Virus record (IMG/VR): IMGVR_UViG_3300035423_000032
Span: 44,984-64,983 of that record
From: an uncultured virus (IMG/VR IMGVR_UViG_3300035423_000032)
Lineage: Duplodnaviria > Heunggongvirae > Uroviricota > Caudoviricetes
Strand: one strand, 5' to 3'
Length of the DNA stretch: 20,000 nucleotides
The notes below the pieces were generated by a model that was not told where the DNA came from, did not search any database, and was given only the letters and a program-made list of their open reading frames with translations. The translations under genes and the position numbers were made by a program. The number at the start of each line of letters is the position of its first letter. Positions within the stretch are counted from its first letter, which is position 1. Shown in pieces: positions 136 through 15,226 of this stretch.

Positions 136-855
136 TTACTCCGTAAATAAACTAAGTTGTCCGCCTGCTTGGATATTGTTAAGTCTATCGGTTGCTACCT
201 TGTGCCACCTTTCCGAGATTTCAAAGCCCAGATAGTGCCTTTTTAGATTTCGGCTTGCGACAGCTGTCGTTCCGCTACCGATAAAAGGGTCGAATACCAA
301 ATCGCCTTCGCTACTGCTGTTTAATATAAAGTTTTGAATGATATGTACTGGTTTTATCGTGCTATGGTCGAACTTCTTCTTATCATTCACATTCATTGTC
401 GTAACATAGAATGTTTTTTTGCTTTCCGAATTACCAAACAACGGTACACCCTTTTCGCGGAAGAAAAAGCAGTATTCCGTATCATTCATATACTTGTTAT
501 TGCAGGTCGGGCAGACATTCGTTTTGTGCCAAGTGATTAAATTCCAGTTACACTTGCGTTGGATAACGAAGTATTGCAACAGCGCAGGGATTTGACTTTT
601 ACTGCACCAAATATACAGATTTATGCGGTTTAATACTCTTACGAATTCGTCGAGTATTTCCGCCTTAAAACCGTCTGATATTTCAACGTATTGTTCGTAG
701 TGCAGGTTCTTCTTTTCACCGAATTTACCTGCGCTATGCTTTACGCTTTGCTCATACGGCGGATCTGTTACTATTAGGTCGACGCTCTTATCGGGCAAAT
801 CTTTAATTGCTTGATAACTGTCAACGCAGTTTATTGTGTCAAGGTCAAACTTCAA
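136..855 (-). CDS. N4-cytosine/N6-adenine DNA methyltransferase (beta class)
   Basis: DPPY motif IV, HSTIKP, DPFIGSGTT motif I; likely TTG start at 855 overlapping the upstream TGA (TTGA) after GAGG; C-terminal QLSLF. Confidence 0.92.
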   Translation of the reverse strand: MKFDLDTINCVDSYQAIKDLPDKSVDLIVTDPPYEQSVKHSAGKFGEKKNLHYEQYVEISDGFKAEILDEFVRVLNRINLYIWCSKSQIPALLQYFVIQRKCNWNLITWHKTNVCPTCNNKYMNDTEYCFFFREKGVPLFGNSESKKTFYVTTMNVNDKKKFDHSTIKPVHIIQNFILNSSSEGDLVFDPFIGSGTTAVASRNLKRHYLGFEISERWHKVATDRLNNIQAGGQLSLFTE

Positions 856-2350
856 GCCGCTTCCTCTGCAATTTCTTTTAAGCCTTCCATAACATAGAGA
901 ATGTTCGGTAAAGCCATTCCGTTGCCCCACATTTTGTATTCGGGGGAATCGTTGTGTTTAATATCTTTCGCCCACCAGTCAGGCATTCCTTGTAATCGTG
1001 CGCATTCTGTCGGCGTAAGACGGCGGACTATTAACCGCGCATTAGTAATTTGGCAAATCGCATTGCCGCCTTGATTTTTTGAAGGGTCTGGCACAGAGGT
1101 ATCTAAGCAACGCGCGATTTCTGTTTTATGTATTCCGCTGTGAGGGTTCTTTGATTTCATGCTGTTGGAGGCGAGCGAATCTAACGTATAAGCCTCGCTG
1201 TAAACAACATAGTTGGGGCATTTATAGTCGCGGCTCTTTAATGTTGGTGATTTTTCTTCTTCGATTGAAAAATATGTTTCGTCTGTTCCACAGTAACAAA
1301 CCGCGTGTCTGTCGATAGTATTAAGCGTGTAACTTACGCCCTCTTTTACCCCTTTACCGTTACACCCCGCCGTATCCGCACGGTCAATACAATTACCTTG
1401 AATGCAATAGACGGGAGGCTTAGCCCCTATAACCAATAACGCCCGTTCTGCACCCGTAGCACACAACGTACAGCAAGGGTCGCCATTCTTGGGGTTGCTT
1501 GCATTTGTTTTGCTGGTTATGGTTTCTTCATTGTAAACAACTACTGCGGTGTAGTCAGTGACGCGATTTTCGTGGTCGCCCGTTATTGTTGGCGCAATAG
1601 CCCCATTTCCGTTGCCTCTTGCATCGAAACATTGCCCTGAATTATGAGCGCAATTTTCAGCAACGTCGGAAGAGTCTTTCCACGTTTGACTGACCGTCTT
1701 AAAATTCCGCGACAAGCCGTTTCGCTCAAATAATATTTTGTCGGCACGTTCTCCTCTAAAATCTGCGACAAGGTAGATTCTTCTACGACGCTGGGGCACT
1801 CCCCAAAATTGAGCATCGAGCGTTCGCCACGCGAGGGAATATCCTCGACCCAATATGTATCCTGCTCTGTTCCAGCGAGTAGATTTGCCCCCCCCCGCGA
1901 AGGTCGAGGAATAACGGCTGAACCGTCTTTAACTCTGACGATTTCTTCAAGGACTGTTCGGAAGTCTTCGCCTTGGTTTGAACTGTATGCGCCGGGGACG
2001 TTTTCCCAAACAACGAATCGAGGAAACTCATTTGCTGTTGCATTTCGCATCTCCTTAATAATTCTTATAGCTTCCATAAAAAGCCCTGACCGTTCACCGT
2101 CTAACCCTTCACGCTTACCTGCTATTGAAAGGTCTTGGCAGGGTGAGCCAAAAGTTATTATGTCAACGGGTTCTATTTCTGCACCATTAATCTTTGTAAT
2201 ATCGCCAAGTTGTTTAACCTTTGGAAATCTCTTTGCCGTTACTTCGAGTGGAAATTTTTCTATTTCTGAACTCCATACTGACTGAATTCCACAAAGCTCT
2301 GCCGCGAAACAACACGTTCCTGCGCCGTCAAATAAACTACCCATTCTCAT
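852..2350 (-). CDS. C5-cytosine DNA methyltransferase alpha subunit, frameshifted at the G9 tract (would be 499 aa with G10)
   Basis: 5' frame has SLFDGAG (I), GSPCQD (IV), WENVPG (VI); 3' frame has AWRTLDAQFWGVPQRRRRIY (VII/VIII), RRLTPTECARLQG and GNG (X); one extra G joins them as ...PSRGGGKSTRWNRAGYILGRGYSLAW. Confidence 0.88.
1583..2043 (-). CDS. Nested beta subunit of the heterodimeric C5-MTase (M.EcoHK31I beta-like), frameshifted at the same G9 tract (153 aa with G10)
   Basis: AAGGAG RBS 7 nt before ATG 2043; N-term SLFGKTSP...KTSEQSLKK; C-term ECPSVVEESTLSQILEENVPTKYYLSETACRGILRR resembles the motif IX-bearing beta polypeptide. Confidence 0.8.
1888..1896 (-). repeat. G9 homopolymer (coding strand TCGC-GGGGGGGGG), putative slipped-strand switch
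   Basis: C9 on + strand at the exact frame junction of both alpha and beta ORFs. Confidence 0.85.
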
Positions 2351-2901
2351 ACTGCTAAGTCCCTCACATAAAACCAACTTTGGGGCGCAGTAAGCACCGT
2401 CCTATCGCAGTAAACTTCTTTGGTTGAAGTCCCCTGATATGCGTAGCGACAGCCTTTGCAATAAATGTCTGTGTTATAGTCGGTCTTTCCGTTTTTGCAC
2501 AGGAATTCAAATTCGTTAAGTTCTTTCGGCTGTTCGTAAACAGTAAGTTCGGAAATATGCAAGCCGTAAAGATAATCTTCTTTGCCGTATGCACGCGCCT
2601 CGCTCTCGGTAAGACAACTGCCACCCCTTGCGATAGCTTCAAAACCGCACTCGCCATAAAGAATTGTTTTGTCGCAAATAAATTCGCCAACAACCTTTCC
2701 GCGAGCCTTGTTTGTAAGAATTACGCTGGCTGCGCTCAAATCGTCGCAGAGAGTAATATCAAACTTACTGCTCGTAACGTAAATGTAAACCTTAAAAGGT
2801 CCGTTAATGTGCGGTATTCTTTTGCGGATCTCAACTGTCTTTAAACCGCGTAATATAAGTTCTACCCACTTGGGTTGAATTGCTATTAAAATCGCTTTCG
2901 C
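2347..2901 (-). CDS. ASCH/PUA-like domain protein; start codon apparently GTG->GCG
   Basis: Frame open from 2901: AKAILIAIQPKWVELILRGLKTVEIRKRIP...PFKVYIY...GKVVGEF...APQSW; the ORF track only called it from 2739. Confidence 0.78.
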   Translation of the reverse strand, partial: AKAILIAIQPKWVELILRGLKTVEIRKRIPHINGPFKVYIYVTSSKFDITLCDDLSAASVILTNKARGKVVGEFICDKTILYGECGFEAIARGGSCLTESEARAYGKEDYLYGLHISELTVYEQPKELNEFEFLCKNGKTDYNTDIYCKGCRYAYQGTSTKEVYCDRTVLTAPQSWFYVRDLAV

Positions 2902-3131
2902 TTTCTACCTCTATAAAGTCGGCTCTTTCTTTGCTTTTTTGTTTCCAGTACTAATGGGCAATCGAATTCGCGCCCATTGTCGTTCGGCAGCGCGGTTTCC
3001 CTACCTGTTAAGCAACAACCATAGATTAAATCACTATCTTTATCAAGTTCGTTTACCTTTCTATGATAGGCAAAATCGCATCCTGTACAGGTAGTTGGAA
3101 TCTCGTCAACTATTACCGATAAAACTTTCAC
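2886..3131 (-). CDS. Small Cys-rich hypothetical phage protein
   Basis: PTTCTGCDF...CCLT...CPL; coupled to neighbours. Confidence 0.7.
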   Translation of the reverse strand: MKVLSVIVDEIPTTCTGCDFAYHRKVNELDKDSDLIYGCCLTGRETALPNDNGREFDCPLVLETKKQRKSRLYRGRKRKRF

Positions 3132-3132
3132 C

Positions 3133-3336
3133 TTACAATTCCTCTAAATACCCGATAAGTTCGTCCGCCGAGCAGTCACCTTCCAAGTAAGCAATTACCT
3201 CTATGATTCTGTCATCGCCCAAATCGACACCCATTTTTTCAAGCTCGGTATTAAGTTTTAAATTTAATTCCCTTTGCTTTTCTGCGTTTTTAGCAATGCA
3301 ATTTGCAATATCTTTAACTTTTTGTGATACTTTCAC
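3133..3336 (-). CDS. Hypothetical protein
   Basis: ORF coupled to the upstream stop (GTGA). Confidence 0.65.
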   Translation of the reverse strand: MKVSQKVKDIANCIAKNAEKQRELNLKLNTELEKMGVDLGDDRIIEVIAYLEGDCSADELIGYLEEL

Positions 3337-6222: not shown

Positions 6223-6990
6223 TTAGATACCGATTTGGAAATGGGGGCGAAGGTAATCCCCGTCGTCCGCGTAGTCGTAGATCGCAAACCCGCTGCTGCT
6301 CACACCGCAGAAGTACTCAGCCGAGGCAACCGAGCGAGTCCACTGCCATCTGCCGTACTCTCCGTCACGGCAACCCGCAATGCGGTTGCGCCAGTCCTCT
6401 TTATAGAGTTCAAACTGTTCGCCCTCCTCGTACATTGCATGAATCTTTCTGCCGTGCAATTCAAACTCCGACGGAATGAATACTTTGTCTTCCAAGAATT
6501 CTCCGTTGCCTACGTCAATTTTGGTCGGAATTATGTATTTTGCAAGGTCGTCGGGTAGCAACGCAAGGAAGTCTTCGTTGAGCCACTTGCGAGCAAGTGT
6601 CTTTGCATATCCCCCTTTAGTGGTACAACTTTTGTTCATTGCAATTCGCCCGTCGCCGTCGTTTGTACCATACAAATCTAAAAGATTAAGAATAACCGCG
6701 TTGTCTTTTCTGTGAGTAATTTGTACCGTATAAAACTCACCGTTTTTTAAGGTAATATTCTTTTTTGCGCCTAAACCTAAAGCCTTTCCACTCTTAGTTT
6801 TTAAAATCTCAATAATCTCGTCCCAACTCTTACTGTTAAGGTCTATGGCAATAGCGGGTAGTGGATGGTTTACCTCTATGAGCTTACTGCAGGTAGGACA
6901 CTTTATTGCTGGGATAATATCCGACTCGTCAAATTCCATTGCTGTAAGACAGCCATTACATGTTGTTACATTCCCTGTGATTACTTTCAT
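6223..6990 (-). CDS. Zn-ribbon + DUF6273/CLec-like protein, probable DGR target
   Basis: CNGC...CPTC; GGY..T.ARKWLN..F, DKVFIPSEFEL, WQWTRS...FCGV...G...LRPHFQI. Confidence 0.82.
   Translation of the reverse strand: MKVITGNVTTCNGCLTAMEFDESDIIPAIKCPTCSKLIEVNHPLPAIAIDLNSKSWDEIIEILKTKSGKALGLGAKKNITLKNGEFYTVQITHRKDNAVILNLLDLYGTNDGDGRIAMNKSCTTKGGYAKTLARKWLNEDFLALLPDDLAKYIIPTKIDVGNGEFLEDKVFIPSEFELHGRKIHAMYEEGEQFELYKEDWRNRIAGCRDGEYGRWQWTRSVASAEYFCGVSSSGFAIYDYADDGDYLRPHFQIGI
6232..6345 (-). other. Putative DGR variable region (VR)
   Basis: Scaffold codons are A-free (TCG GTT GCC, TTC TGC, GTG, GGG, GCG, CTT CGC CCC); 13 intervening codons all end in C/T, matching an AAY template. Confidence 0.7.
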
Positions 6991-7961
6991 AAATTCTCCT
7001 TGTTAAAGTAAATTTCCCTTATTGTTTTTCCGTCCTTGCGCGGCACATAGTCCATGAATTCGCAAGTTCGGAATAGAATTCTGTTGTTGCACCACCGTTG
7101 CAAATCTCTTATGATTTGCGGGGCGGTATTTTTGCGGTAAATTCTTATGTCGGGCAAAAAACCCAGTTTTCTCACAGCTTGCACACGGTAAAGGTCTTGC
7201 TCTATCGTTGTGTTGAAATTTGTTAGTATGTAAACGATTTGCTTACTGTCGCCACCACCAACAATCTCTTTGTAAACCGAAAGACCTTTAATGATTGCCT
7301 TTTCGTTTTTCATAAAGTCGAAAGCGAAGTGCGTCCGCTTTGCCTTAATCTTTTTTAAGAGGTCGGCAACTTCTCGCGTAATAAATCTCGCATCGAGTCC
7401 TTGGTTGAAATTCACGTTCGCCTTACTATCTGCGAGCTGTTGCAGAAGTTCCATTCGGTCTTTGCAAGCAAGCAGGTTTGCGTCAAGCAGTTCAATATTT
7501 TTCTGCCCTTTCCAAAACTCTGACAAATCAGCAACCTTTTGACTGCATATTCCCTCTTTCTTGCTCACAATGCAGAAGTCACAGTTGTTACAGCAACCCC
7601 GTGTAAGAAAGCCGTAAGCGGTATCCTTAGTGAGTTCGGGGTATAGACTGTAATCGGGGTAAATGTGTTCTATCTCGTCGGGTAGCACGGGGTCGCGGTC
7701 TTTATGGTAAACTTCTTTTCCGTTCTCAACCGTTATTGCAAAACCAGTTCCGCCGTAAACTATTTCGTCGGCTTGTAAGCAGGAAATCGGCATTTCCGAA
7801 TACTCGTCGCCAAAAACCTTGCTGACATAGATTTTGTCGTAATGTTTTAAAGGCAATACAAACTCTACCGAATCGCCACGCGCCTTGTGCCACGCTGATA
7901 TTTTCATTAAGGGCAGGTTCGGGAAGTTATGACTATCAACGTCGAATAAACCGATATTCAT
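6987..7961 (-). CDS. Radical SAM protein with N-terminal B12-binding-like region
   Basis: TRGCCNNCDFC (CxxxCxxC); N-term PNLPLMKISAWHK...GGTG. Confidence 0.85.
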   Translation of the reverse strand: MNIGLFDVDSHNFPNLPLMKISAWHKARGDSVEFVLPLKHYDKIYVSKVFGDEYSEMPISCLQADEIVYGGTGFAITVENGKEVYHKDRDPVLPDEIEHIYPDYSLYPELTKDTAYGFLTRGCCNNCDFCIVSKKEGICSQKVADLSEFWKGQKNIELLDANLLACKDRMELLQQLADSKANVNFNQGLDARFITREVADLLKKIKAKRTHFAFDFMKNEKAIIKGLSVYKEIVGGGDSKQIVYILTNFNTTIEQDLYRVQAVRKLGFLPDIRIYRKNTAPQIIRDLQRWCNNRILFRTCEFMDYVPRKDGKTIREIYFNKENL

Positions 7962-12422: not shown

Positions 12423-13424
12423 TTATTTTATGCCGCTATCGGCACCCTGATTAAAGAGGTTAATCTGTGTACCCCCCCCCGCGACTCTCTTTTTGATAAT
12501 GGGAATGTATTCGGGGGAAAGTTCTATGAGAATGAAATCTCTGCCGTTTTCCTTTGCTACTTCGCCAGTAGTCCCACTGCCTGCAAACGGGTCAAGCACC
12601 GTTCCGCCCACTCTACTGCCCGCAAGAATGCAGGGTTTGATTAAGTCTTTCGGGAATGTTGCGAAGTGTGCACCTTTGAATGGTTTAGTGGTTACGTCCC
12701 AAACGTCGCGTTTGCGCCGTGTGGGTCTGAAATCGTAAGCGTGTCCACTCTTTGTTCTGTAAAACTTATCGGGGTTCTCGGTGTATTTCTTACCGCCGTA
12801 TCGAGGTAATTTTTCACCAGTCTGTTCCGTCGGCTCTTTAAAACGTTTTGACGTATAGTCAACAACTGGTTCTTCAATAGCCTTGTAATCGAAGTAGTAA
12901 TGCGCCGATTTTGAAAGCAAGAAAATGTATTCGTGTGATTTGGTGCATCTGTCCGTAACGCTTTCGGGCATAGGGTTCGGCTTATGCCAAATTATGTCCT
13001 GTCGCAAATACCAACCATCAGCCCTTAATGCAAGGGCGAGTAACCAAGGAATACCCATTAAGTCTTTCGGTTTCATTCCGAGAGAAGACGGCTTTATAAG
13101 CTCGTGCTTGTGCGTTCCGAGAATGCCTTTGTTTGTTGCTTGTATCTTCGCAAGCGGGGTTGTTTGTCCTTTACCCTTTCCGCTACCCGCGTAACTGTCT
13201 GCTATGTTGACCCATAACGTGCCGTCAGGCTTTAATACACGTCGAACCTCGCGGAATATATCGACGAGCTTTTCTATGTACTCGTCAACCGTCTTTTCAA
13301 GCCCGATTTGCCCCTCTACGCCGTAATCTCTTAACTGAAAGTATGGTGGTGAGGTTACACAGCAATCAACGCTATTTTGCGGTAATGTTTTAAGTTTTTC
13401 GAGAGCCTCGCCTTGAATAATCAC
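12423..13424 (-). CDS. N4-cytosine-type (SPPY) beta-class DNA methyltransferase
   Basis: TSPPY, IIWHKPNPMPES, HFATFP, DPFAGSGTT; GTGA coupling. Confidence 0.93.
   Translation of the reverse strand: MIIQGEALEKLKTLPQNSVDCCVTSPPYFQLRDYGVEGQIGLEKTVDEYIEKLVDIFREVRRVLKPDGTLWVNIADSYAGSGKGKGQTTPLAKIQATNKGILGTHKHELIKPSSLGMKPKDLMGIPWLLALALRADGWYLRQDIIWHKPNPMPESVTDRCTKSHEYIFLLSKSAHYYFDYKAIEEPVVDYTSKRFKEPTEQTGEKLPRYGGKKYTENPDKFYRTKSGHAYDFRPTRRKRDVWDVTTKPFKGAHFATFPKDLIKPCILAGSRVGGTVLDPFAGSGTTGEVAKENGRDFILIELSPEYIPIIKKRVAGGGTQINLFNQGADSGIK
12472..12480 (-). repeat. Second G9 homopolymer (TCGC-G9) before the QINLF tail
   Basis: + strand CCCCCCCCCGCGA 12472-12484, identical to 1888-1900. Confidence 0.8.
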
Positions 13425-15226
13425 GCAGCCACCTTTTTCTTGCGCTTACCTTGCGCCGATGCCGTTTTGTCGAATTCCAGATTAAGGTCTTTCATTGTCG
13501 GTATATTGTCTTTAACTACCGCAAGTTCGGGCACATTCGCCTTTACAAGAGCCGTAGCAACGGGCGGACATACCGCATTTCCAAGCCTTGCAACCTGTTT
13601 TGATTTGTTGTACGCTTTACCGATTTTGCTTTCTATGTCAATGCAATAATCGGCGGGAAAGCCTTGGGCGAGTTTCAGTTCTTCGGGTTCAAGCATTCTC
13701 ATTCCAACGTCGGAAATAAAGTACTGCACACCTGCAATTTCAAAAATAAGAAGTTCGTCCTTAGCTATGTTGTAACCCGCATAGTTGTTTAAAAGGTCGC
13801 GCACCATATCCCACTTTCCGAGATTTTGAGTAACGCCGACTTTCTGCAGATAAGTGCTTACTAAAACTTCGTGCGCCTTTGCAGTTACTGTGGGGAACTG
13901 TTCTCTTAAATCTGAGCACCCCATGTGATTACGCAATACGCATAAATGCTGTTCTACGAGATAGTGGCGAGGCTCAACAGTAACCGTTGCCAACGGGCTA
14001 TCGGGACTGCTTGCGTGGTCTGCGCCACCGTAATAGTGCATTATGTTTGCTGTCATAAGGTGTTCGTGATTCGTGCCCGTAATGGTAGGCATAGGCTTGT
14101 CTGCACCGCTACCCCTACCGTCCGCACCGTCGCCGTATCTACTGGAAAGATTAACGGAAACCAAAGCGTTGTGGTCAATTCCAGTTACTGTCGGCGCAGG
14201 ATCTGTTATGTCTGCGCCCTTCTGATAATCACCGCTGTAATGTTTTGCCAAGTACTTGGCTTCAAGTTTAGGCTCAATAAGGTAGTGGTGATTTGCGGAA
14301 GTCTGCGTCGACATAGGTTTGTCGGGGTCTTGCGCCGTATTCGAGTAGTTCATTTCCATAATGAACGGCTGAGGGTTCTTGATTACAAACTTATCAAGCC
14401 CACGCGCAATTCTGCGTAATGTGTTGGGGACAAGCACTTTCTTTCTTCCAAAAATGGACGGACATTCAAGCAACCAGTTGATGCAGTCTGCGGCGGTTCT
14501 GTAAGGTTCCAACCCCTTACCTTCGCCGTGTGTCGGTTCGGGCCATACGATAGGCTTTTTGTCGCAACGAGCAATAAGGTAGAAACGCTTTCTTATTGTG
14601 GGCGCGCCGTAATCGCAGGCTTTAAGCACTTTCCATTCGACTTCGTAACCGAGCGCGCGCAGTTGCTCAACAAATCTGTTGAATGTCTGCCCGGCGCGTT
14701 TTTTATCGGGTTCAAACTGCTGCTGTTCTGCCGAAAGCACTTCGCCTTTTTCGGCGGTTATGTACTTAGTTTTGCCTCCCACTTTTATGATTTCTTTTAC
14801 ACAACGTCCATTTACGCGAATAGTCTTTAAGGGTCCCCAAGTCGTAAATTCTTCGACGTTTTCAAGAATGATTACACGGGGACGGACCATTCCAGCCCAT
14901 TTGAGCGCAATCCACGCAAGACCGCGTATATTCTTCTTGACGGGCGTATTACCTTTCGCTTTGGAAAAGTGGGTGCAGTCGGGCGAAAGCCACATAAGAC
15001 CTACGGATCGCCCTTGCGTAATTTCTTTCGGGTTTACACCCCACACGTCTTCCATAAGGTGTTGCGTGTAAGGGTGATTAACTCCGTGCATTGCTATTGC
15101 ATCGGGGTTGTGGTTTATCGCAACGTCAACAGGCACGCCGAGCGCAAGTTCTATTCCCGTGCTTGCGCCGCCGCCGCCAGCGAAGTTGTCAACTATCATT
15201 TCACGCAGAAGGTTGTCTTGATACAT
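13421..15226 (-). CDS. C5-cytosine DNA methyltransferase (phage type) with repeated variable-region modules
   Basis: DNFAGGGG (I), SPDCTHFS (IV), LENV (VI), APTIRKRF (VIII), AQGFP, LGNAV (X). Confidence 0.93.
   Translation of the reverse strand: MYQDNLLREMIVDNFAGGGGASTGIELALGVPVDVAINHNPDAIAMHGVNHPYTQHLMEDVWGVNPKEITQGRSVGLMWLSPDCTHFSKAKGNTPVKKNIRGLAWIALKWAGMVRPRVIILENVEEFTTWGPLKTIRVNGRCVKEIIKVGGKTKYITAEKGEVLSAEQQQFEPDKKRAGQTFNRFVEQLRALGYEVEWKVLKACDYGAPTIRKRFYLIARCDKKPIVWPEPTHGEGKGLEPYRTAADCINWLLECPSIFGRKKVLVPNTLRRIARGLDKFVIKNPQPFIMEMNYSNTAQDPDKPMSTQTSANHHYLIEPKLEAKYLAKHYSGDYQKGADITDPAPTVTGIDHNALVSVNLSSRYGDGADGRGSGADKPMPTITGTNHEHLMTANIMHYYGGADHASSPDSPLATVTVEPRHYLVEQHLCVLRNHMGCSDLREQFPTVTAKAHEVLVSTYLQKVGVTQNLGKWDMVRDLLNNYAGYNIAKDELLIFEIAGVQYFISDVGMRMLEPEELKLAQGFPADYCIDIESKIGKAYNKSKQVARLGNAVCPPVATALVKANVPELAVVKDNIPTMKDLNLEFDKTASAQGKRKKKVAA

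Follow-up and report, generated by a model that had tools for sequence, protein, structure and literature searches.

A poly-G tract inside two overlapping genes as a candidate joint phase switch of a prophage C5 DNA methyltransferase

Introduction

DNA methyltransferases that vary in phase through simple sequence repeats (SSRs) include the Type III mod enzymes, the Type I hsd 'phasevarions' and the enzyme encoded by bpm of Bordetella phage BPP-1, which contains a poly-G tract; in these systems the repeat lies in a single reading frame. In M.EcoHK31I from Escherichia coli HK31, the alpha polypeptide comprises motifs I–VIII, motif X and the recognition domain, and the beta polypeptide carries motif IX (PMC2836561); no homopolymer switch is mentioned in the available part of that paper (PMC2836561). 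Here we describe a locus related to both arrangements in a 20,000-nt stretch of DNA (the window; all coordinates refer to its full length unless stated otherwise) from an uncultured virus of the Caudoviricetes, positions 44,984 to 64,983 of IMG/VR record IMGVR_UViG_3300035423_000032. The locus encodes a C5 DNA methyltransferase (alpha) and, nested within alpha in another frame, a smaller protein (beta), and both genes cross a run of nine Gs (G9). The parts into which the tract divides them are called alphaN and alphaC, and betaN and betaC.

As in the SSR phase-variable methyltransferases, the homopolymer of this locus lies in coding sequence and its length differs between otherwise identical copies, in-phase and out-of-phase alleles both being present. 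It differs from them in that the tract is dual-coding, shifts two genes and makes chimeras, and in that the enzyme is an orphan prophage C5 methyltransferase. The likeness to M.EcoHK31I is that the alpha gene contains, in another frame, the gene for a small protein, here one predicted to bind alpha; this nesting is intact in the G10 allele described below and is broken by the G9 of the window. The two are set apart by motif content, because the alpha of the window carries motif IX (RRLTPTECARLQG) and its beta does not. Among the phage C5 methyltransferases with a nested +1-frame gene delineated below, the window has the nested gene at the same position, with the same conserved motifs and predicted partner role, and differs in that a single tract would switch both genes. 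Literature searches for genes nested in or overlapping those of phage cytosine methyltransferases, and for phage enzymes of this kind that vary in phase, did not find this arrangement.

Results

The tract interrupts both genes of the window

The coding strand of the locus is the minus strand, so that the nine Cs of the plus strand are G9 in the gene (Table 1). Minus-strand frame translation revealed that the open reading frame (ORF) starting at ATG 2350 encodes 255 aa and stops at 1585–1583. Its first ~150 residues contain motifs I–VI, and the 100 aa after the tract are read in the third frame, that of betaC. The frame that ends at the stop codon 852–854 is open from 1928 and contains QRRRR (motif VIII), RRLTPTECARLQG (motif IX) and WGNG (motif X). 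Both halves of the C5 DNA methyltransferase domain (PF00145), with the PCQ, ENV, QxRxR, IX and X motifs, are therefore present in the window, here across two frames. The frame of ATG 2043 goes out of register after the tract and stops at 1783, giving 86 aa, and the beta profile matches the window in two frames that join at the tract. An earlier reading of the letters without database searches (the sequence-only reading) had described a beta gene starting at ATG 2043 with its own AAGGAG inside alpha, a G9 crossed by both genes and a 255-aa chimera of alpha motifs I–VI with the beta C-terminus; translation bore out all three, and relatives also support the nested gene. The start conserved in the family aligns with the second ATG, at 2031, rather than with ATG 2043. 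The TTG with an upstream AGGA that the same reading had proposed for the open alphaC frame is present in the window. The 86-aa betaN ORF had no match in Pfam or PHROG, and a tandem-repeat finder run on the window found no repeats.

Table 1. Parts of the interrupted methyltransferase locus in the window
Feature	Position	Strand	Remarks
G9 homopolymer (C9 on the plus strand)	1888..1896	-	Putative slippage site; Gly run in whichever frame is read
alphaN: start ATG 2350 and motifs I–VI	1897..2350	-	PF00145 positions 1–129, E 1.9e-30
betaC: C-terminal two thirds of nested beta, conserved	1583..1887	-	Beta profile E 2.3e-38 at 1876–1625
alphaC frame: motif VIII, target-recognition region, IX and X	852..1928	-	PF00145 positions 134–321, E 6.4e-17
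betaN: 5' part of the nested gene from ATG 2043	1897..2043	-	Beta profile E 2.5e-12 at 2028–1882
AAGGAG, Shine–Dalgarno (SD) sequence for beta	2051..2056	-	7-nt spacer to ATG 2043; made from alpha Lys-Glu codons
TTG (1853–1851) and AGGA (1863–1860), proposed alphaC start	1851..1863	-	Present in the window

Natural alleles occupy all three tract phases

Three collections were searched with the tract and its flanks, and 500 nt on each side were compared. Five copies, the window included, have identical (100%) 500-nt flanks on both sides and differ in tract length: G8 in an IMG/VR copy (L165) and in a metagenome-assembled genome (MAG) labelled Ca. Borkfalkiaceae (L251), G9 in the window, G10 in a 492-kb contig of a MAG labelled uncultured Christensenella (L252) and G13 in a metagenome contig labelled cov 3.9 (L168). 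At ~96% flank identity, L166 has G11, and L167 and L169 have GGT followed by G8 and, immediately behind this tract, a TAA in frame with alphaN. All three phases of the tract are present in nature. The sequence-only reading had proposed an alignment of homologues for variation in tract length; lengths from 8 to 13 occur between identical flanks, and other subclades carry tracts in different phases at the same site (L161 G9, L162 G7, L188 G10, L204 G9 and L234 G8).

Two of the configurations predicted by that reading exist as natural alleles. A G10 copy in a MAG (L253), 100% identical to an 1801-base query except in the tract, joins alphaN and alphaC in a single ORF and encodes an alpha of 499 aa from its ATG (508 aa if counted from an upstream TTG) and a beta of 153 aa, with beta (1958–2419 of that copy) nested wholly within alpha (1624–3150). 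In a G8 copy (L254), likewise 100% identical to the query except in the tract, betaN is joined to alphaC in a 396-aa ORF, and the N-terminal stub is 197 aa, counted from the TTG. Among Logan contigs from four public runs, three have G9 (X1, X13 and X15) and the fourth has two additional Cs, i.e., G11 (X16), its contigs ending and starting at the tract. G9 was thus assembled in three of four runs, from three studies, although the window itself may derive from X1 and X13.

Faecalibacterium phage FP_Toutatis, which is in culture, also carries G9 at this site and in the phase of the window, and its annotation there consists of two methylase genes; inspection of its sequence by eye revealed no ATG, GTG or TTG in the stretch from the tract to motif VIII. 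Two database proteins, P0021 and P0002, have an identical C-terminal sequence that follows alphaN in P0021 and betaN in P0002, and P0020 has the phase of the window plus one extra Gly. Among the motif-classified loci, the only true alphaN–betaC fusions are the tract-bearing window, L161 and L162. Four other candidate chimeras (L091, L106, L120 and L159) were rejected, as the beta motif EENVP contains ENV, and the 23 loci scored 'no_betaC' reflect the strictness of the pattern, not absence of betaC.

Two further proteins have unusual structures. P0026 (621 aa, in the alphaN–betaC phase) contains Hint/intein-type Pfam domains (PF13403 and PF14890), and its PCQ motif is split into 'SPC', a long insert and then 'CQDLS'. 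P0029 (466 aa, NCBI) is a single chain that runs through alphaN as far as 'AWRTLDAQFWGVP', continues in the beta frame ('...ESTLSQILE...KYYLS') and ends with motifs IX and X; it is without QRRRR and is either a natural hybrid or a frameshifted record.

Beta is conserved as a nested gene

Eighty IMG/VR loci were drawn by alpha residues 1–102 only, which lie upstream of the overlap, thereby avoiding circularity; six were too short, leaving 74. Around alpha codon 150, the +1 frame is open for at least 120 codons in 72 of the 74 loci and the +2 frame in five, and the beta profile matches the +1 frame in 70 loci, the +2 frame in three and frame 0 in one. Selection was assessed on 49 alphas of no more than 85% identity, taken from 75 loci (67 unique) that had partly been chosen by beta similarity. 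No +1 stop occurs in any of them over alignment columns 105–225, where synonymous-site identity is 0.44–0.93 (at least 0.57 in six of eight alignment windows) compared with ~0.3–0.46 elsewhere, and synonymous-site identity peaks where alpha is least conserved. The start Met of beta is invariant in all 35 aligned betas, and 20 of 22 relatives have an SD-like motif of at least 4 nt situated 6–10 nt 5' of the beta ATG, composed of the Glu-Met-Arg codons of alpha.

In tblastn searches, the 100 aa at the end of the G9 product (its tail) and the alpha-frame translation of the same DNA both matched the same places in homologous phage genes; in Ruminococcus phage NatCom_2329 the tail matches with E 3e-21 (60% identity) and the alpha frame with E 2e-23. 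Both this phage and Streptococcus phage Javan105 have a stop-free +1 stretch of 135–140 codons within an uninterrupted alpha. In the protein database, 17 stand-alone proteins of 75–165 aa, out of 18 candidates, match the tail; most of them cover betaN and betaC, and one (P0002) starts like the beta of the window. On this comparative evidence, the nested beta is a real gene. It defines a family with a +1 ORF of ~130–160 codons that starts near alpha codon 103–110, matches the beta profile and appears to be kept open by selection, and of which the window is a member split by the tract.

Bisulfite sequencing has shown the SpSL1 genome to be methylated by the m5C methyltransferase of this pneumophage (PMC6755750), and a nested gene is not mentioned in the available part of that paper (PMC6755750). 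We observed that the SpSL1 gene (L255, KM882824, 6828–7910) contains a +1-frame stretch matching the beta profile with E 1.6e-11. Among enzymes shown by experiment to be active, there is thus one with the nested frame, and it could serve as a test bed.

Beta is predicted to bind alpha next to motifs VIII and IX

Intact betas from relatives had no Pfam match and gave only noise in NCBIfam, and comparison of beta with PDB sequences returned nothing usable, the single match (6z1p, E 0.0066) being at chance level. The alpha profile aligns to residues 90–283 of E. coli Dcm, ending at motif VIII (E 6e-17), and the beta profile aligns weakly to residues 284–338, directly after motif VIII (E 0.005, probability 7%). 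The interest of this weak second match lies in its exact adjacency to the first. The two stretches follow one another in the single chain of Dcm, whereas in the window they correspond to overlapping DNA read in two frames. The segment that one-chain enzymes have after motif VIII is probably contributed by beta.

A complex was modelled with custom alignments for an intact homologous pair (L204; alpha 549 aa, beta 149 aa). It had an ipSAE interface score of 0.84, compared with 0.00 for the best control; the mark used for this score is reached by 116 of 157 solved complexes and two of 215 mismatched pairs. At least 54% of the contacts agreed between runs, and the predicted local distance difference test (pLDDT) value of the partner was at least 59. 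The modelled interface includes alpha 162–214 and 486–500, the latter corresponding to motif IX. A beta strand at 44–50 is paired with alpha 163–171, and the conserved LSQIL region of beta contacts alpha 186–188 (motif VIII) as well as 486–500. Modelled alone, beta had a mean pLDDT of 58.5 and was mostly disordered or of low confidence, only the helices at 110–147 being confident. The complex model supports binding of beta to alpha, and beta is best read, from these predictions, as a detached part of the enzyme, folded onto alpha.

Beta was also considered as a motif-IX chain of the M.EcoHK31I type. We rejected this assignment, because motif IX is in alpha, beta shows none and the beta profile aligns after motif VIII. 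Consequently, the earlier proposal of a phase-variable heterodimeric phage methyltransferase modelled on M.EcoHK31I stands in its nested gene, shared tract, length variation and three phases, and fails in its M.EcoHK31I-type content.

G runs recur across the family

In the methylase genes of the 80 alpha-chosen loci (133 kb), runs of at least seven comprise 57 G runs on the coding strand and no C run; in the flanks of the same loci (214 kb) there are 15 G runs and no C run. The G runs recur at fixed places, including codons 141–159, the site of the tract in the window, and codons ~236–243, at the end of beta. A G run of at least six is present at codons 141–159 in nine of the 80 loci, and most family members are without a tract in the overlap; some family genes contain six or seven G runs. 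By a crude pattern applied to related loci, 21 of 25 genes with G runs are discontinuous versus seven of 43 without, 12 loci having been skipped as too short. Non-standard frame layouts thus accompany G runs across the 80 loci, as a mutational switch predicts. Whatever the frame, a G run is translated as Gly, a residue suited to linkers in both of two overlapping proteins, and this may account for the strand bias.

Where beta ends, a second homopolymer (C10 in L005, G8 in L073) sets whether the alpha or the beta frame enters the part containing the recognition region and motifs IX and X. Because this tract selects the entering frame, proteins exist in which beta is followed by the target-recognition region and motifs IX and X (P0022–25 and P0032–36).

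Four IMG/VR loci (L174, L238, L149 and L093) have five to seven G runs of 6–10 nt in one methyltransferase gene, some of them at Gly-rich motifs of recognition modules, and the gene is broken into several frames. From its sequence, this arrangement looks like combinatorial switching of recognition modules.

Phage context and other genes of the window

The window forms the final 20 kb of a virus record of 64,983 bases. In it lie an integrase gene, a gene for a repressor-like regulator, genes for recombination and replication and no fewer than four DNA methyltransferase genes. Its source is a temperate gut phage, and one copy, identical apart from the tract, was assembled within a 492-kb MAG contig from the mouse gut. 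Besides the locus described above, the minus strand encodes two N6/N4 methyltransferases (136–930 and 12423–13424) and a second C5 methyltransferase (13421–15226) of 601 aa that belongs to another subfamily and has no significant match to the beta profile (nearest at 14661–14575, E 1.8). Alpha and the first N6/N4 gene share 79 nt at the 3' end of alpha. A second G9 on the coding strand (C9 at 12472–12480 of the plus strand) lies, in frame, in the C-terminal tail of the second N6/N4 gene; the PF01555 match of that protein is complete up to residue 312, and a slip would alter no more than the final 17 or so residues. Among the phage replication genes, 6987–7961 (minus strand) encodes a radical SAM domain protein (phrog_9298, E 2.4e-99).

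Discussion

We consider it rather probable that the locus undergoes phase variation by slipped-strand mispairing that switches both subunits together, with the G9 of the window as an OFF-type allele. The prophage C5 DNA methyltransferase would consist of two proteins that share one stretch of coding DNA: alpha (499 aa in its intact form), with motifs I–VIII, the recognition region and motifs IX and X, and beta (153 aa), which would be read one base out of step within alpha from its own ribosome-binding site and is predicted to sit against the motif VIII and motif IX regions of alpha. Slipped-strand mispairing at replication would alter the length of the poly-G tract in the stretch common to both genes, and since both genes cross the tract, one slippage event would break or restore both frames. 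G10 and G13 would be ON alleles, and G9, as in the window, and G8/G11 would be OFF-type alleles giving only stubs and chimeras. At G9 the products would be the 255-aa alphaN–betaC chimera and the betaN stub, with no conserved start for the piece containing motifs VIII–X. A phage population would contain methylating and non-methylating members. We infer that switching occurs within a lineage, that activity is lost at G9 and that beta acts as a partner of alpha.

Several points weigh against joint switching. The tract lengths come from assembled contigs, and the break of the X16 contigs at the tract is a mere hint of heterogeneity within a sample. Some lengths derive from low-coverage assemblies, such as that of the G13 copy, and are possible miscounts; X1 and X13, as possible sources of the window, are not independent support for G9, and the two G8 copies L165 and L251 may not be independent samples. 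Out-of-phase alleles are commoner than in-phase ones, and the alphaN–betaC phase recurs in P0019, P0020 (with its extra Gly), P0021, P0026 and FP_Toutatis (G9), a recurrence that could mean that the phase is useful. The count of discontinuous genes relies on a motif-IX pattern so strict that some long intact genes are misclassified, and it was made on loci related to each other; the loci of the synonymous-site alignment were, as stated above, not chosen independently of beta.

The recurrence of the alphaN–betaC phase would also fit a tract in which each phase gave a different working subunit set, differing in activity or specificity: alpha and beta at G10, an N-terminal catalytic piece and a betaN–alphaC protein made from the good start of beta at G8/G11, and alphaN–betaC with a separately started C-terminal piece at G9. 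Both products of the G8 phase have proper starts; L167 and L169, with their interrupted tract and the TAA after it, have a trimmed out-of-frame tail, which gives that phase a tidied look; the extra Gly of P0020 is in frame; and elsewhere in the family the end-of-beta homopolymer picks the frame, with beta proteins that continue into the recognition region and motifs IX and X. However, the C-terminal piece of G9, containing motifs VIII–X, has no conserved start, since the TTG and AGGA of the window read CTG and AGGG in L086 and L087, relatives of ~96% identity, and the suggestion of the sequence-only reading that G9 might be a re-split enzyme is accordingly unsupported. Likewise, betaC has no start at G8/G11, the four of 74 alpha-chosen loci with beta outside the +1 frame all have an in-gene G run of at least six, chance alone would put roughly two thirds of alleles out of phase if none of the three phases were selected, and L167 and L169 may be one phage seen twice. 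A different working set in every phase is therefore quite unlikely in our view. The narrower proposition that at least the G8/G11 phase is a working alternative enzyme, so that one homopolymer would specify three methylation states rather than two, each phase joining alphaN, alphaC, betaN and betaC differently, we regard simply as unlikely.

Slippage might instead take place during expression, RNA polymerase or the ribosome slipping on the G run so that every allele yields a mixture of frames and the DNA length sets only their ratio; out-of-phase alleles such as G9 would then still make some alpha and beta. The confinement of long G runs to the coding strand and the retention of an out-of-phase G9 by the cultured FP_Toutatis are consistent with this, and for herpesvirus thymidine kinase the available part of one source documents compensatory frameshifting at a low level on a G run (PMC5009743). 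The strand bias nevertheless has a simpler cause, in that a G run is Gly in every frame and suits loops in both proteins, whereas a C run is Pro, and the tract length varies at the DNA level, as replication slippage predicts; recoding is in our judgement distinctly improbable. Least credible of all, and hardly to be expected, is that the true tract is G10 everywhere and that the other lengths are homopolymer miscounts by short-read assemblers. Long G runs are error-prone, and the coverage label of L168 is low, but the range of 8 to 13 in otherwise identical copies is wider than the usual consensus miscount, G8 was found in two collections, G9 was assembled independently in three of four runs (two of them perhaps the window's source), and tracts in different phases occupy the same site in five loci of other subclades.

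Homopolymer switches of methyltransferases and one enzyme with a subunit nested in another frame were known separately and are combined here. What is new is one tract within a dual-coding overlap that would govern both subunits, with its putative ON allele found in nature. The strong enrichment of coding-strand G runs extends across a large phage family, in which the nested partner gene goes unannotated, and phage cytosine methylases recorded as 'frameshifted' or 'split', such as that of FP_Toutatis, probably represent OFF alleles and not dead genes. Should the switch operate as we read it, prophage and phage populations would hedge between methylated and unmethylated DNA, the former protected from ordinary restriction and the latter invisible to methyl-dependent restriction.

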